This document shows, in pieces, positions 43,787 through 49,949 of a stretch of DNA of 64,000 nt. Source of the DNA: Escherichia coli (GTDB taxonomy: Bacteria > Pseudomonadota > Gammaproteobacteria > Enterobacterales > Enterobacteriaceae); NCBI RefSeq assembly GCF_003334305.1, contig NZ_QOWS01000021.1; one strand, 5' to 3'. The notes beneath the pieces were generated by a model. That model was not told where the DNA came from. It searched no databases and saw nothing but the letters and a program-made list of their open reading frames with translations. How positions within the stretch are numbered: position 1 is the first letter of the stretch; every line of letters starts with the position of its first letter. A program made the translations under genes and the position numbers.

Positions 43787-44500
43787 TTATTCTTTATTAT
43801 CTTCTTTACCACTTCGCACCATCCCGTTCGACTTGTTGCGGTTGTACTTCGCCTGAAGCAGCTGGATTGGCGTCGGGCCATGCTCGGCAGCCGGTGCTGC
43901 AATCGCCCGGCGCACAGGCGGTACTGGTTTGCCCTCGGTGACGCGCCTCTCCCACATGTCCAGCAGATCGCCGGCTTCACGCGCCAGCTCACCATGCGTT
44001 AACTGGCGCTCTGTGCTGCGGTGGCGCAGTTCGACGCAGATGTGGTACATGACAGGCTGTGACCACGGGAAATGCTCGCTGGAAGTGAATTCGAAGGAAC
44101 GATTACGCCAATCCCAGTATTCGGTTATGACTTGGTCAACAGTGATACCTAACGCCCCGCCACTCTGCTTACACCACGCTACGAACTGGCCGGGCGACGG
44201 CAGGAATGGTCGCTCCTGTCGGCGGGCCACGCGCATTCCGGCGTTAACCTGTTCCATTGTGGTGATCCCGTTTTCCCGGAAAGCCAGAACCCACTGGCGG
44301 CGAATTTCGTTCAGTTCGTTCTGGTCACGGTTAGCCAGGCTCGCAGGGAAAGTTGCCAGCAACTGGCTGAATACACCGTTGATGATCTGCGCTACCTGCT
44401 GTACCTGCGGCTTTTCGTCGTACTGTTCCGGCATGTTGTTGGCGATCCGGCGCATCTGCTCACGGTCAAAGTTAACCATCTGTGCGGCGATGTTTTTCAT
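43787..44500 (-). CDS. P: Replication protein P (helicase loader), 237 aa
   Basis: N-terminal two-thirds match lambda P as recalled; the C-terminus diverges. Confidence 0.85.
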   Translation of the reverse strand: MKNIAAQMVNFDREQMRRIANNMPEQYDEKPQVQQVAQIINGVFSQLLATFPASLANRDQNELNEIRRQWVLAFRENGITTMEQVNAGMRVARRQERPFLPSPGQFVAWCKQSGGALGITVDQVITEYWDWRNRSFEFTSSEHFPWSQPVMYHICVELRHRSTERQLTHGELAREAGDLLDMWERRVTEGKPVPPVRRAIAAPAAEHGPTPIQLLQAKYNRNKSNGMVRSGKEDNKE

Positions 44501-45426
44501 AAATCCACCCCGTAAATCCAGTCAGTGTTCGTCAGGTCGAGTTTTGGTTTGCCGGCTGTCACGCCAGCCTGTTGCTTGTTTCGGTTGATTTCGAGCTGGG
44601 TCCACTTGTCGCGGAGTTTGGCCGGACTCAGCACGTTACCGGACCAGAAGTTGTCCTGGCAGGCCCAGCGAAACAGTACACACATGTCGCGGTGGTTACG
44701 TCCATCACGTTCACGCATCAGACGGATATCGTTAGCCCACCCTGCAAAATTCGGTTTTCTGGCTGATGGTGCGATAGTCTTCACCATGTCAAACATCCAC
44801 TCTGCGGCGGTCAGGTCTTCTGCTGTCCCCCACTTGCTGCCGTTCTGAATCGCAGCATCCGCTTTCACCACAGGAAGGTCGTTTTCTGGCAGGTCAGAGG
44901 ATTCGCCAGAATTCTCTGACGAATAAGGTTTTATATTGTCTTTTGTTAGTTTGTCTTTTGTGTTTACCGGATTCGGGTAAGTGCCTTTACCTGATTTGGG
45001 TAAACTTTTCTTACCTGATTCAGGTAAATTTACCTCTTTCAGGTAAACTTTATTTTTCTTACCTGATTCGGGTAATGTTGACCATTCACTGACCACATTA
45101 TTAATGCCTATATTCCGCCCGCTCTGAATAAAAATCCCACGCTTTACCAGAACACTTTTTGCAGCAGAACACTTGTGCGGCAATATCCCGGTCAACTCGG
45201 AAAGTTGCTCGTTGCTCACCCAATCCAGTTTTTTATTAAAGCCATATGTTTTGCGCATGACAGCCAGGAAGACCAGAAGCTGGTGCTGTGTTAATCCGGC
45301 CAGCATTACAGCTTCCAGCAACTCATTTGCAATGCGCGTATAACCATCATCGAGATCTGCCACGCGCGGCTCCTTTTGTGCCGCATCCGGCACAGGAAAA
45401 TTGAATATCTCAGCAGTGTTTGCCAT
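44497..45426 (-). CDS. O: Replication initiator O (contains ori iterons)
   Basis: ORF 44497-45516; ATG at 45426 has a GGGAGG SD and an N-terminus (MANTAEIFNF) like lambda O (MTNTAKILNF). Confidence 0.8.
   Translation of the reverse strand: MANTAEIFNFPVPDAAQKEPRVADLDDGYTRIANELLEAVMLAGLTQHQLLVFLAVMRKTYGFNKKLDWVSNEQLSELTGILPHKCSAAKSVLVKRGIFIQSGRNIGINNVVSEWSTLPESGKKNKVYLKEVNLPESGKKSLPKSGKGTYPNPVNTKDKLTKDNIKPYSSENSGESSDLPENDLPVVKADAAIQNGSKWGTAEDLTAAEWMFDMVKTIAPSARKPNFAGWANDIRLMRERDGRNHRDMCVLFRWACQDNFWSGNVLSPAKLRDKWTQLEINRNKQQAGVTAGKPKLDLTNTDWIYGVDL
44963..45075. repeat. ori: five ~17-bp iterons (ttacctgattcgggtaa-like) with a flanking AT-rich stretch, inside the O gene
   Basis: Direct repeats ttaccggattcgggtaa, ttacctgatttgggtaa, ttacctgattcaggtaa, ttacctctttcaggtaa, ttacctgattcgggtaa; coordinates approximate. 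Confidence 0.75.
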
Positions 45427-45512
45427 AATTCCTCCCGCAATGAGTGTGTTACGATTTGCACCTGAAAGTCGGTTCTGTTCCCGCAGACCGACTTTCGCCA
45501 TTTTTAAACCTG

Positions 45513-46058
45513 TCATATTGCCCCCAACATGGTGGTAACCATCGCCATCAATGGACCAGCCAGATCCGGGTCCACACGAAACATCGACACAATACCTTCA
45601 CTCATCTCCTTCAGTTTCTGGTGGCGTGGTGCGTTGAGAATGACAGCCTGTTTTGCCTCACTGAGTTCCTTTTCCATTTCAGCCAACCGAGTCATGAAGC
45701 TATCCTGCTCAACCAGGTAACCGCGATATTCCAGCGGTAGTACCGCCAGAATTGCCGGGGTCAGTTCACGCACGTTATTTCGGTATTTTTCAGAATCGAA
45801 TTTGTTATCGAGGAAGCGGAACAGCTTCTGGCGTGCACGGCTGACATCATCAGGGAAATCGATGGTGCCGCCGCCCTGTGCTCGATACTCATTCACAATG
45901 AGTGCGGCAACAACATCCTGATTATCTGCAGCCGACCAGGCGCGGACGGCATCACGGATTTTTTCGTGGCCTGGCACCTGTTTTGTTTGAGAACGATTTA
46001 TCACCGCAGTCGGGCTAAATCCGCTAGTCTGTTGGTATGTAAGTGGTTGCATAGTCAT
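45513..46058 (-). CDS. YdaT-family protein in the cII position, 181 aa
   Basis: Similarity to Rac YdaT as recalled (EYRAQGGG…LTPAILAVLP vs EYLRQGGG…LIPAILAILP). Confidence 0.6.
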   Translation of the reverse strand: MTMQPLTYQQTSGFSPTAVINRSQTKQVPGHEKIRDAVRAWSAADNQDVVAALIVNEYRAQGGGTIDFPDDVSRARQKLFRFLDNKFDSEKYRNNVRELTPAILAVLPLEYRGYLVEQDSFMTRLAEMEKELSEAKQAVILNAPRHQKLKEMSEGIVSMFRVDPDLAGPLMAMVTTMLGAI

Positions 46059-46082
46059 TGCCTTATCAGTTAACGCCGCAGT

Positions 46083-46316
46083 TTAGGCGGCAGAATTACT
46101 CGCGTTAAACAATGGTGCGAGGTCGGGACGAATATCTGCTGGTTTAATCTTTCCACCAGTGGCTGAGACAATTTTCATTACATAGCGGGCATCAATTCCG
46201 CCACCGTGTAGCCAACGCCAAACTGTGGGTTGGGCTACACCGCATAGATCTGCCAGTCGTTTTTGACTACCTGTAATACTGATTGCGAGTTGAATGGTTT
46301 GATTTGTCATTATCAA
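46083..46316 (-). CDS. Cro/YdaS-like HTH regulator, 77 aa
   Basis: HTH (LADLCGVAQPTVWRW); divergent from the cI-like gene across an operator region. Confidence 0.7.
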   Translation of the reverse strand: MIMTNQTIQLAISITGSQKRLADLCGVAQPTVWRWLHGGGIDARYVMKIVSATGGKIKPADIRPDLAPLFNASNSAA

Positions 46317-46324
46317 TTCCTATT

Positions 46325-46380
46325 GGTATTGCAATGAATGAATAATAGCAATGAGTATTAACCCAAGCAATAGCAAAACG
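46325..46380. promoter_or_regulatory. OR-like operator/promoter region between the cro-like and cI-like genes
   Basis: Repeated atagcaat(g/a)agtatt-type motifs shared with the OL region; TATAAA about 9 nt upstream of the cI ATG suggests a leaderless PRM transcript; coordinates approximate. Confidence 0.5.
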
Positions 46381-46420
46381 TGTTTTGACCATCAATACGC
46401 AAGCGTATAAATTAAAACTT

Positions 46421-47113
46421 ATGAAAAAAGAAACTCTTGCTGATCGCTTAAATCTAGCGATGGAACAATCTGGAATGTCTCAAGGCGCTCTTGCAAAGGC
46501 GTCTGGCGTAGCTCAACCCACAATCTGGAGACTGACAAGCGGCAACGCGCGCGGCTCAACAAAAATTGTTGAAATAGCTAATGCATTGGGTGTTCGAACA
46601 GAATGGCTCTCTTCAGGCATAGGCCCGATGAGAAATGACGGTCAACAATCAGGGAAGCCTGCTGTCAGCCATTCCAAATACTTCAAAATTGACGTTCTTG
46701 ATATAGAAGTCAGTGCCGGGCCGGGTGTAATCAACCGTGAGTTTGTAGAAGTTCTACGCTCGGTTGAATACTCGTTTGACGATGCTCGTCACATGTTCGA
46801 TGGCAGGAAGGCGGAAAATATCCGCATCATTAACGTGCGTGGTGACAGCATGTCAGGAACGATCGAACCAGGTGATCTGCTGTTCGTTGATATCACGGTT
46901 AAATCTTTCGACGGTGATGGTATCTATGCGTTTCTGTATGACGACACCGCCCATGTAAAACGCCTGCAAATGATGAAGGATAAGCTGCTGGTTATCTCTG
47001 ATAACAAGAGCTACTCACCGTGGGACCCGATCGAGAAAGACGAGATGAACCGCGTGTTCATCTTCGGGAAAGTCATCGGGAGCATGCCGCAGACATATAG
47101 AAAGCATGGGTAG
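46421..47113 (+). CDS. cI: CI-type repressor (HTH + S24 LexA-like peptidase domain), 230 aa
   Basis: N-terminal HTH (MSQGALAKASGVAQPTIWRL) and C-terminal S24 region (VRGDSMSGTIEPGDLLFVD…KRL). Confidence 0.85.
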   Translation: MKKETLADRLNLAMEQSGMSQGALAKASGVAQPTIWRLTSGNARGSTKIVEIANALGVRTEWLSSGIGPMRNDGQQSGKPAVSHSKYFKIDVLDIEVSAGPGVINREFVEVLRSVEYSFDDARHMFDGRKAENIRIINVRGDSMSGTIEPGDLLFVDITVKSFDGDGIYAFLYDDTAHVKRLQMMKDKLLVISDNKSYSPWDPIEKDEMNRVFIFGKVIGSMPQTYRKHG

Positions 47114-47175
47114 AAATCAGAACAAAATTATGCACTTCGCTTTTCAGCTTACTGTAGTAAGGCAATAAATTAGGC

Positions 47176-47212
47176 TTGACGTTAGCTATCAGGTGCACAA
47201 CAATAATTGTTG
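47176..47212 (+). promoter_or_regulatory. Candidate promoter with a 15-bp perfect palindrome (caacaataattgttg) upstream of the HTH-peptidase gene
   Basis: TTGACG -35-like hexamer followed by the palindrome, 30-65 nt upstream of the 47243 start; coordinates approximate. Confidence 0.4.
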
Positions 47213-47242
47213 AATAATAGGTTTTTTTAACTAGGTGATAAC

Positions 47243-48382
47243 ATGGCAGCGGTTGAATTTCAATTGTCTAGGAAGATGATTGATTGGATAGCAAATTCTC
47301 AAGGAGTTTCTATCGAAACTCTTGCTGACCAAGTCATGCCCAAAAAGATTAATAAATTTCTTAACGGAGTGGTAAGTAAATCCGCAGCAGAAAAACTGGC
47401 AAAAATTGGAGGAATCCCTTTCGGTTTTTTATTTCTTGAAACGCCACCAACTCCAGCCAAACCCAAGATCCCTGACTTAAGGCAAGCTATAAATAGCCGT
47501 GAGTTAGGAAAAGATTTTTTTGATGTTTACTATGATATAGAATATAAACTTGAGTGGTACAAAGACTATTTAAGAGAAAATGGTAATGATGATCCACTCG
47601 ATTTTATTGGTAAATTTAAATTTAATAGAAAATTAAATTATAAGGTTGTTGCTACAGACATAGCAAACACAATACATTTTGATATACAAAAAGAGATAAA
47701 AAATGTCACTTTTGAGAGCTATTTTTCTAAAGTGGCAAAACTAATAGAAGACACTGGCGTATTAGTTTTCAAGAATGGTGTTGTGGGTAATAATAATAAA
47801 AGAAAACTTGACACGCGAGAGTTTCGTGGTTTCTGTATATCTGATAGCGTTGCTCCGATCATTTTTGTAAATAGCTCGGACGCGTTATCTGCGCAGGTAT
47901 TTACATTATTTCATGAGGTGGCTCATCTTTGGCTTGGAGTCGATGGAGTCTCTGGGTGGGACACAGAAAAAAACATAGAATCTTTTTGTAATAAAGTTGC
48001 TGCTGAAATCTTAATGCCTGATAATCTCTTCAAATCTTTCTGGCTTAATGCATCCAGCGATAATAATTATTATCGAGTAAAAGAGGTTTCTAAGTTATTT
48101 AAGGTTAGTGATTTCGCTTGTGCAATCAAAGCGTTACAATTAGATTTGATAGAAAGAAACACTTTGGAGATAATTAAAGATCAAGCTTACAATAAGCCCA
48201 AAAAAGAATCCAATGGTGGTTCTTTCTTTAACACATTACCTGTTCGTAACAGTCCAAAACTTACGAATATAATAATTTCCAAAGCAATGTCTCAACAATT
48301 ACCATTAAGGGAAGCAGGCGTACTGCTAAATGTAAAAGCAGATACAGTTGTTGAATTTTATAAAAAACGAGAATCTCTATGA
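47243..48382 (+). CDS. HTH-fused ImmA/IrrE-family (M78/DUF955-like) zinc metallopeptidase, 379 aa
   Basis: N-terminal XRE-like HTH; HEXXH motif (FHEVAHLW); AGGTGA SD; AT-rich; directly downstream of cI. Confidence 0.7.
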   Translation: MAAVEFQLSRKMIDWIANSQGVSIETLADQVMPKKINKFLNGVVSKSAAEKLAKIGGIPFGFLFLETPPTPAKPKIPDLRQAINSRELGKDFFDVYYDIEYKLEWYKDYLRENGNDDPLDFIGKFKFNRKLNYKVVATDIANTIHFDIQKEIKNVTFESYFSKVAKLIEDTGVLVFKNGVVGNNNKRKLDTREFRGFCISDSVAPIIFVNSSDALSAQVFTLFHEVAHLWLGVDGVSGWDTEKNIESFCNKVAAEILMPDNLFKSFWLNASSDNNYYRVKEVSKLFKVSDFACAIKALQLDLIERNTLEIIKDQAYNKPKKESNGGSFFNTLPVRNSPKLTNIIISKAMSQQLPLREAGVLLNVKADTVVEFYKKRESL

Positions 48383-48891
48383 TTCATAATGGAAAATTCT
48401 TAATTGATAGTAATGTCTTCATAGAGGCAAAAAACTTTGCATATAACTTCAATTATTGCAAAATATTTTGGGATTTTCTTCTCGCTTTACACATTAATGG
48501 TCTGATTTATAGCATTAATGCTGTAAAAAAAGAACTATGTGCAAAAGATGATCCATTGTGTAAATGGATTAAAGAAGAGTTACCATCATCATTCTTCGAA
48601 GATGAGCATAGTTCAATAGAAAATTATGCAAAGTTAATAAATTGGTCAACTAAATTAGATGTTACCGAAAAGGCAAAGTTTGATTTTGCAAGCCATGAAA
48701 AAGCAGATGCTTTTTTAATAGCCCATGCGATGACACATGGATATACTATTATTACCCATGAGAAACCATCCGGTGGCAAACCTAAAAAAAGAATAATGAT
48801 CCCGGATGCTGCTGCTTCTCACGGCGTTAAGACATTAACACTATATGAATTTCTTCCAAGATACGCTAGTCATAATTTTTCTTTGAAATAA
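48379..48891 (+). CDS. PIN-like (possibly DUF4411-family) putative nuclease/effector, 170 aa
   Basis: ATGA overlap with the upstream gene; N-terminal strand-Asp motif (FLIDSNVFIEA) typical of PIN folds; fold assignment is tentative. Confidence 0.5.
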   Translation: MIHNGKFLIDSNVFIEAKNFAYNFNYCKIFWDFLLALHINGLIYSINAVKKELCAKDDPLCKWIKEELPSSFFEDEHSSIENYAKLINWSTKLDVTEKAKFDFASHEKADAFLIAHAMTHGYTIITHEKPSGGKPKKRIMIPDAAASHGVKTLTLYEFLPRYASHNFSLK

Positions 48892-48896
48892 AACGT

Positions 48897-48923
48897 CCCG
48901 GCCACCGTGCCGGGTTTTCTTTT
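48897..48923 (+). terminator. Rho-independent terminator after the two-gene cassette
   Basis: cccggccaccgtgccggg followed by TTTTCTTTT. Confidence 0.75.
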
Positions 48924-49044
48924 GCCTCCCCTCATCACACACACCGTTCAAAAAACCACCACAACCCCGCTTCAGTTATCGCTATGCGATGCAAGTCACA
49001 AAATTAATTCTTTTTGCTATCAAATATTTAATATCAAAACACAT

Positions 49045-49092
49045 CTAGCAATAGCAATAAGTATTGATATCATCAATAGCAATAGCTATTAT
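49045..49092. promoter_or_regulatory. OL-like operator region (pL)
   Basis: tagcaatagcaataagtattg and atcaatagcaatagctattatc repeat the motif seen in the OR region; coordinates approximate. Confidence 0.45.
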
Positions 49093-49198
49093 CACCATGT
49101 CGCAACAACACAACGATACGGCAATCACCTGATTCACCGTTGCGATGACCGCTTAGATCCGCAGCTTGAATTTCAGCAGGCTCCGGGGAGTGCGAGGG

Positions 49199-49576
49199 GT
49201 GAAGCGGACGCGTGAACGTCGGTGTGACCAGCTGAAATCAACTCAACACTTCATACCTCAGTCGCTTCAACGAGGCGGCTTAGTTATGACAACCGGCGGC
49301 CATCCACCGCCTGAATACGCGCAGAAGTCTTTATATGTTCAGCAGCCCAGCTTACGGGCAGGAGTTTTTATGGTTCATCAACATTACGGAACGCAGACCG
49401 TTAATCGCGGTGCGGTCATGCCAGGAATGCTGGTCAAACACAAAGATGGTACCTGGACTGCATCAGCTAATTTACGCGGACGGCTTTATCTGCATCGCGG
49501 CATCGAGCGCACTTATACCCGTGATTTGCTCGTAGAAGTTTTTCTCGACGGACGCGGTAACGGCCTGAATCACTAA
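49199..49576 (+). CDS. Possible N-like antitermination protein with an arginine-rich motif (GTG start)
   Basis: First gene after the OL region; KRTRERR at the N-terminus resembles N-protein ARMs; no other similarity recognised. Confidence 0.3.
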   Translation: MKRTRERRCDQLKSTQHFIPQSLQRGGLVMTTGGHPPPEYAQKSLYVQQPSLRAGVFMVHQHYGTQTVNRGAVMPGMLVKHKDGTWTASANLRGRLYLHRGIERTYTRDLLVEVFLDGRGNGLNH

Positions 49577-49652
49577 CCCCCCTTTCCTGTTTTCCTAATC
49601 AGCCTGGCATTTCGCAGGCGATATTTTCACAGCCATTTTCAGGAGTTCAGCC

Positions 49653-49949
49653 ATGAACGCTTATTACATTCAGGATCGTCTTGAGGCTCAGAGCTGGGCA
49701 CGTCACTACCAGCAGATCGCCCGTGAAGAGAAAGAGGCAGAACTGGCAGACGACATGGAAAAAGGTCTTCCACAGCACCTGTTTGAATCACTCTGTATCG
49801 ATCATTTGCAACGCTGCGGGGCCAGCAAAAAAGCCATTACCCGTGCGTTTGATGACGATGTTGAGTTTCAGGAGCGCATGGCAGAACACATCCGGTACAT
49901 GGTTGAAACCATTGCTCACCACCAGTTTGATATTGATTCAGAGGTATAA
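49653..49949 (+). CDS. gam: Gam (RecBCD inhibitor, short form), 98 aa
   Basis: Matches lambda GamS as recalled ([21 protein letters not shown]…). Confidence 0.9.

Follow-up and report, generated by a model that had tools for sequence, protein, structure and literature searches.

Phage lambda provides the reference design for the locus analysed here. Its cro and cI genes are divergent, three OR dyads lie over PR and PRM, and related operators lie over PL about 2.7 kb away; its CI protein joins a helix-turn-helix to an S24 domain, a -10 hexamer stands 6-7 nt before a cI ATG that has no Shine-Dalgarno sequence, and accessory genes are found between cI and OL, at the rexAB position. Each of these features recurs in the prophage described below. 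The operators of phage 434 are 14 bp long with ACAA arms, and the recognition helices of its CI and Cro proteins are near-identical, as they are in the present case. The cI mRNA of lambda is the classical leaderless mRNA (PMC10491246), and a lambdoid precedent beyond lambda is offered by paaR2 of prophage CP-933P (E. coli O157:H7), whose transcript lacks a leader according to 5′ RACE (PMC8630535). Among P22-like typing phages, the ST104 type is one of five repressor types, and hence operator specificities, that have been distinguished (PMC10307801); the operators of the ST104 type are not given in that article.

In this work we examine a stretch of 64,000 nucleotides of Escherichia coli DNA, referred to throughout as the window. 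The early region of a lambdoid prophage spans 43.7-51.4 kb of the window, reversed relative to the lambda map, and we consider it highly probable, taking the whole switch and the leaderless-cI explanation jointly, that the region at 46-49 kb is the immunity switch of this prophage with its map orientation reversed with respect to lambda. The genes and signals that define the setting are the following:

43787-44500, minus strand: P-like replication gene
44497-45516, minus strand: O-like replication gene
45513-46058, minus strand: cII-like gene, 181 aa
46083-46310, minus strand: cro, 75 aa, first gene of the PR operon (open reading frame; assigned to PHROG 35, transcriptional repressor, with E 9e-24; helix-turn-helix alignable to the one in CI)
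46421-47113, plus strand: cI repressor gene, 230 aa (helix-turn-helix and S24 self-cleaving peptidase domain)
47243-48382, plus strand: cargo gene, HTH and Peptidase_M78 / ImmA/IrrE-like
48379-48891, plus strand: cargo gene, DUF4411
48897-48914, plus strand: terminator-like hairpin at the end of the cI-plus-cargo transcription unit, before OL (terminator scan)
about 49006-49092, plus strand: OL/PL control region
49370-49576, plus strand: kil, earliest gene that can be recognised in the leftward operon, ahead of gam, bet and exo (PHROG 294, Kil, E 1e-37)
49653 onward, plus strand: gam, bet and exo (open reading frames)

The cro and cI genes are divergent, with their ATG codons at 46310 (minus strand) and 46421 (plus strand), 110 bp apart. 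CI carries the Pfam domains HTH_3 (E 3e-6) and Peptidase_S24 (E 2e-18), together with Ala99-Gly100, Ser143 (in GDSM) and Lys180, which correspond to the Ala-Gly site and the Ser/Lys dyad of a predicted self-cleavage domain. The closest solved structure to its N-terminal domain is the 434 repressor (E about 2e-5). The recognition helix GVAQPT(I/V)WR is common to CI and Cro, a likeness that would fit two proteins reading one set of sites.

The slot between cI and OL differs among relatives of the prophage. In the window the cargo genes (47243-48891) occupy the rexAB position of lambda, and the Peptidase_M78 protein shows weak PADLOC similarity to CapP and RmrA. The relatives carry other genes at this place, among them an ASCH-domain protein, HipA-like kinases and ParA-like proteins, and in 71 loci OL2 lies between 1463 and 2675 nt from the cI ATG. 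Since both content and length vary, the slot can be regarded as a variable cargo or defence hotspot.

The sequence-only reading from which this analysis started had reported a motif of about 17 bp in the cro-cI intergenic region and again upstream of the leftward operon, at 49045-49092. The recurrence stands: the string ATAGCAAT[G/A]AGTATT has exactly two occurrences in the 64-kb window, at 46345-46359 and 49051-49065. The shared stretch, however, is 16 nt (AATAGCAATRAGTATT) rather than 17, and the second interval, which does contain the motif, holds two sites (49050-49065 and 49075-49090) instead of one. The search for further copies that had been suggested with that reading places three copies in OR and two in OL, with some weaker candidates besides:

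46344-46359: OR1, AATAGCAATGAGTATT, overlapping the PR -10
46369-46384: OR2, AATAGCAAAACGTGTT, 25 bp from OR1, covering the PR -35 and abutting the PRM -35
46394-46409: OR3, AATACGCAAGCGTATA, 25 bp from OR2, in the PRM spacer and reaching into its -10
49050-49065: OL2, AATAGCAATAAGTATT, overlapping the PL -35
49075-49090: OL1, AATAGCAATAGCTATT, 25 bp from OL2, a perfect 6-4-6 palindrome overlapping the PL -10

The repeat unit is a 16-bp dyad of two-fold symmetry with a 6-4-6 structure, AATA[G/C]N-N4-N[G/C]TATT, and OL1 is the sole match in the window to AATAGCN4GCTATT with zero mismatches. The pitch is exactly 25 bp within each cluster, at OR as at OL. The operator centres fall at -19.5, -44.5 and -69.5 relative to the A of the cI ATG, near those of lambda, which we take to be at roughly -20, -42 and -66. 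When up to three mismatches are allowed, the string given above returns 13 matches in the window against 2.9 expected (at least 13 were obtained in none of 100 shuffles), and six of the 13 fall inside the two regulatory regions. The loose consensus AATASN6STATT, with at most one mismatch, returns 12 hits against 5.5 expected; four of them lie within 46315-46409 and two within 49050-49090, and the remaining six equal the background expectation. By our own Poisson estimate, the probability of four hits in 95 bp at a background of about 9e-5 hits per bp is of the order of 1e-10.

A position weight matrix was trained on the five sites themselves, so that their own scores are circular and the matrix is useful only for other hits and for relatives. 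One site outside the prophage, at 353-368 (AATAGTCATACCTATT), scores as high as the five training sites and is a perfect match to the loose operator consensus. It is remote from the immunity region and precedes by about 85 bp a host-type membrane-protein gene (452-1657), which we take to be nfrB-like. We do not count this site as an operator; it is probably a chance match, because about 5.5 such hits are expected per window.

Three promoters are predicted in association with these dyads:

46342-46370, minus strand: PR, -35 TTGCTT (46370..46365), 17-nt spacer, -10 TATTAT (46347..46342); read from the sequence, 8/12
46385-46413, plus strand: PRM, TTGACC, 17-nt spacer, TAAATT; promoter scan, 9/12
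49064-49092, plus strand: PL, TTGATA, 17-nt spacer, TATTAT; promoter scan, 10/12

The threshold of the promoter scan was set at 9 of the 12 sigma-70 consensus positions, and PR, with 8, falls below it. PR and PL nevertheless share one layout, in which the -35 hexamer starts with the final TT of site 2 and the -10 hexamer with the final TATT of site 1. The OR1-OR2 and OL2-OL1 spacers contain the last four bases of the PR and PL -35 hexamers. The PRM hexamers are unchanged in all relatives compared.

The module formed by cro and cI is present at a coverage of at least 80% in 719 of 5,426 complete E. coli genomes and also in sequenced coliphages, including 4A7, 4C10, PhiR30_1 and Perceval, and CI homologues 82-86% identical to that of the window are encoded by P22-like Salmonella phages (Salfasec13b, SE1, ST160) and by Klebsiella phages. 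Three OR and two OL dyads with the same spacing are found in coliphage 4A7, in Salfasec13b and SE1, and in the Klebsiella phages ST11-VIM1phi8.2 and 6 LV-2017, with differing spacers. The relatives all retain TTGACC, TAAATT, the 11 nt between OR3 and the cI ATG, and two OL dyads placed 25 bp apart over a PL with an unchanged layout, and OR2 is identical in the E. coli, Salmonella and Klebsiella relatives.

For a population view of OR, we combined the window and two phage loci with 80 IMG/VR loci whose CI N-terminal domain is identical, giving 83 sequences that represent 33 distinct variants. The operators have a mean column entropy of 0.01-0.07, compared with 0.62 for the OR1-OR2 spacer, 0.42 for 46331-46343 and 0.08-0.12 for the flanking coding sequence; OR3 is the least variable of all segments (0.01). 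The OR1 half-sites are invariant in 44 distinct sequences. OL was recovered in 71 loci, comprising 41 variants, and one OL lineage with unrelated flanks retains both dyads and an upstream element described below.

The dyads also follow the DNA-binding proteins. The CI of phage PhiR5_1 is 100% identical to that of the window in its C-terminal domain and 51% identical in its N-terminal domain, and its Cro is a different one; the control regions of this phage show no AATAGC dyads and carry another repeat instead, similar to AACCAnnGGTTGT (locus L004, 3380-3500). The dyads thus co-vary with the CI DNA-binding domain and Cro, and PhiR5_1 shows that the specificity module has been swapped in nature among phages of a single group. 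The proposal that OR and OL carry operators of one immunity specificity is in this way supported by the dyads and their 25-bp phasing, by their overlap with the predicted promoters, by conservation across genera and by their absence in PhiR5_1.

Several observations concern variation at and between the sites. The OR1 allele of the window, which has A at 46354 (position 11, GAGTATT), is a rare one. Each of the 80 IMG/VR loci, like phage 4A7, carries C at this position (AATAGCAATNCGTATT), and A is otherwise seen only in Salmonella phages. The near-identity of OR1 and OL2 on which the initial reading was based is therefore in part specific to this allele. Among prophages that are otherwise near-identical, the spacers at 46360-46368, 46331-46343 and 49046-49049 vary far more than the flanking coding sequence: the 9-nt OR1-OR2 spacer occurs in at least 12 alleles and the 4 nt before OL2 in nine. 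Natural -35 alleles include TTGCTT, TTGATT and TTGCCA, and promoter strength therefore probably varies from one spacer allele to another. Five loci (L019, L032, L061 and others) have one extra base pair between OR1 and OR2, which makes their pitch 26 instead of 25 bp, so the spacing between OR1 and OR2 is not strictly fixed.

The geometry upstream of cI bears on how its maintenance mRNA begins. A TATAAA hexamer ending about 9 nt before the cI ATG had been taken to place the PRM start at or near the start codon, as in lambda. This hexamer is found at 46406-46411, with 9 nt between it and the ATG at 46421, and it overlaps the -10 of the better promoter, TAAATT, 2 nt downstream. Seven nt separate TAAATT from the ATG, the A of which is the 8th nt after the hexamer and the sole purine in 46418-46422. 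If TATAAA were the true -10, the start would instead lie about 3 nt upstream of the ATG and produce a very short leader in place of none. No Shine-Dalgarno sequence was detected at cI, where the best anti-Shine-Dalgarno duplex amounts to -0.1 kcal/mol against -3.0 to -8.4 kcal/mol for ten neighbouring genes, and the same value of -0.1 kcal/mol is obtained for cI in the E. coli, Salmonella and Klebsiella relatives examined.

The distances involved are conserved independently of the letters. Between the -10 and the ATG lie 7 nt whose letters differ (aaaactt, gaatatt, tgaaatt, tgagatt) but whose number is constant in all 33 OR variants, and the distance from OR3 to the ATG is 11 nt in these 33 variants and in the Salmonella and Klebsiella relatives, with six of those positions varying. 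Heteroimmune relatives likewise place a -10-like hexamer shortly before the ATG (TACATT at 6 nt in PhiR5_1, TATATT at 6 nt in HK639 and TATAGT at 7 nt in HK75/HK022), the geometry being less clear in SfII. The -10 geometry, the lack of a Shine-Dalgarno sequence and the invariant spacing support the proposed start of PRM transcription at or near the cI start codon, and the cI mRNA from PRM is likely to be leaderless.

Two competing explanations have to be weighed against these results. The dyads could be operators while the maintenance cI mRNA nonetheless has a leader, being transcribed from another upstream promoter or from an establishment-type promoter only, and translated from the ATG or from TTG 46385 without a Shine-Dalgarno sequence, with the help of A/U-rich upstream sequence. 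The cI frame is indeed open back to TTG 46385 in all relatives, and the record of Salfasec13b annotates the longer coding sequence. That TTG, however, forms the first three bases of the conserved PRM -35 TTGACC, and the substitutions at 46391-46420, which are mostly non-synonymous and would translate as KLKL, KLNI or KFEI in three genera, are not codon-like; TTG 46385 was rejected as the cI start on these grounds. Alignments by tblastn to distant CI homologues, moreover, begin at residues 1-2 of the ATG-started protein. The match of PRM to the consensus, at 9/12 only, speaks for a leadered mRNA, but the scan of the plus strand in the cro-cI gap returned no promoter-like site besides PRM, and the heteroimmune relatives repeat the -10-to-ATG geometry. 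Taken together, these points make a leadered maintenance mRNA unlikely.

Alternatively, the shared motif might bind no protein and be a by-product of paralogy, left by duplication of the PR and PL promoter regions. The two promoters do have the same layout, with the TT of a dyad plus four bases forming the -35, a 17-nt spacer, and a TATTAT that overlaps the next dyad. Such an origin would not account for OR3 and OR2, on the PRM side, where the promoter surroundings of the dyad are different, nor for the internal two-fold symmetry of every site. The sites are in addition more conserved than coding sequence, whereas the promoter spacers and the intervening -35 bases vary, and the motif is gone where the CI DNA-binding domain and Cro have been replaced. 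We therefore regard paralogy by itself as a most improbable source of the motif.

Returning to the reading of the locus as a lambda-type immunity switch with a leaderless cI mRNA, we infer the following course of binding, occupancy order, PRM activation and transcription start from the sequence. CI and Cro would both recognise the 16-bp AATA[G/C]N-N4-N[G/C]TATT dyads. In the lysogen, CI bound at OR1/OR2 and at OL1/OL2 would shut off PR and PL, and CI at OR2 would be positioned for activation of PRM, with OR3 providing negative autoregulation at high CI. PRM most likely initiates transcription at the A of the cI ATG or no more than 3 nt from it. The maintenance cI mRNA would in that case have no leader, and its translation would, as for lambda cI, proceed without a Shine-Dalgarno sequence.

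Two further elements were considered as candidate operators:

46315-46330: operator-like dyad AATTCCTATTGGTATT, a candidate fourth operator at OR that covers the cro ribosome-binding site, with 1 mismatch to the loose consensus
49006-49021: distal element, AATTCTTTTTGCTATC, candidate weak OL3, 44 bp before OL2

The dyad at 46315-46330 covers about +6 to +21 of the predicted PR transcript. Its outer positions are conserved in Salmonella and Klebsiella, where the adjoining 13 nt diverge; this conservation may partly reflect the cro Shine-Dalgarno sequence, and the dyad is only weakly indicated as an operator. The distal element maintains the same 44-bp offset in all four lineages, including the one with unrelated flanks, and has two mismatches to the consensus that are the identical two in every lineage; it may be a weak OL3. 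Klebsiella relatives possess a full extra dyad 20 bp upstream of OL2, at a place where the window has a half-site only.

By eye, the sequence TATCAAATATTTA at 49018-49030, which overlaps the conserved distal element, fits what we take to be the IHF core consensus (WATCAANNNNTTR). Its position is some 70-80 bp ahead of the point where PL transcription is predicted to start. E. coli and Klebsiella lineages preserve the match, which is missing from the Salmonella phages and from the divergent-flank E. coli lineage (L030 group).

These elements can be combined with the spacer variation in a reading in which the switch has more parts than that of lambda, namely a fourth dyad, a distal element and set-points tuned by the spacers. 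Through the dyad at 46315-46330, CI or Cro could obstruct the early transcript from PR, the "deliberately imperfect" element at 49006-49021 could serve long-range looping between OL and OR or bind a factor such as IHF, and the hypervariable operator spacers may reflect selection for differing switch set-points within one immunity type. As a joint proposition we consider this reading doubtful.

No N-like antiterminator gene follows PL, and a 277-nt leader (49093-49369) leads directly into kil. Antitermination of the PL operon by put RNA of the HK022/HK639 type was considered and is not retained. An E-value scan of 45900-49700 against Rfam returned a chance miRNA hit only, alignment to the annotated putL-like RNA of HK639 gave no convincing match after PL, and the predicted fold of 49100-49260 is no more stable than that of shuffled sequence (z = -0.36), although divergent put elements could escape these comparisons. 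The segment 49250-49311 is shared with HK225 (97%) and phi80 (85%), in unannotated sequence.

Compared with known systems, the design of this switch is that of lambda in every respect tested, and conceptually it adds nothing to the lambda model. The differences lie in the components. The operators here are 16 bp long, with 6-4-6 structure and AATAGC arms, as opposed to 17 bp in lambda, and the sequences are unrelated; the pitch is an even 25 bp, against 24 and 23 bp in lambda; and the window has two clear OL sites only, no N gene after PL, and a cII-like gene of 181 aa. With respect to phage 434, the likeness is confined to the N-terminal domain of CI, the recognition helix reads AQPTIWR in place of QQSIEQL, and the C-terminal domain has HK022-type relatives.

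Those relatives resemble the window in gene order and architecture. The CI of HK75 is 51% identical to that of the window in its C-terminal domain, and oR1-3, oL1-3 and pR/pL are annotated in its record with an equivalent arrangement. In HK639, CI is 43% identical in the C-terminal and 57% in the N-terminal domain, Cro is 57% identical, and a gene of the same cII-like family is present; three dyads of about 14 bp with ATAAC arms follow a 24-25 bp pitch, and the third ends 11 nt before the ATG, as here. The operator sequences of HK022, HK75 and HK639 differ from those of the window, and HK022/HK75 and HK639 would on that basis be heteroimmune to its type. HK022 has in addition a far-right operator (OFR), and HK022 and HK639 use put RNA antiterminators; no put-like similarity was found downstream of PL in the window. 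The switch has, by these comparisons, a 434-like DNA-binding domain and an HK022/HK639-like C-terminal domain and overall gene order.

The PaaR2/YdaS system of CP-933P (PMC8630535) is likewise a lambdoid divergent-promoter switch in which the mRNA of a CI-like regulator starts at the start codon, but it uses unrelated operators, with GTTTAGTAA repeats and four 18-bp palindromes, and a different regulator, which is far smaller, at about 15 kDa, than the CI of 230 aa here. The cI of the window would add a further probable leaderless repressor mRNA to those described.

The repressor belongs to the ST104 type of Salmonella phages (ST104, SE1, ST160 and several Anderson typing phages), whose CI is 86% identical to that of the window. 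The OR2 and OR3 dyads are identical, the OR1 of SE1/Salfasec13b is identical to that of the window, and the OL layout is the same; these phages differ from the prophage in being P22-like, with an N-type antiterminator and a nutL-like boxA after PL. The repressor type is thus already known. A literature search with six exact operator sequences returned no paper in the searchable literature, subscription journals lying outside its coverage. With the operator set and promoter map defined, prophages of this kind can be grouped by immunity from sequence alone, and the map provides a ready design for reporter and gel-shift tests. Together with PhiR5_1 and HK639, the type described here forms a natural series of CI, Cro and operator combinations in which changes of binding specificity can be studied.
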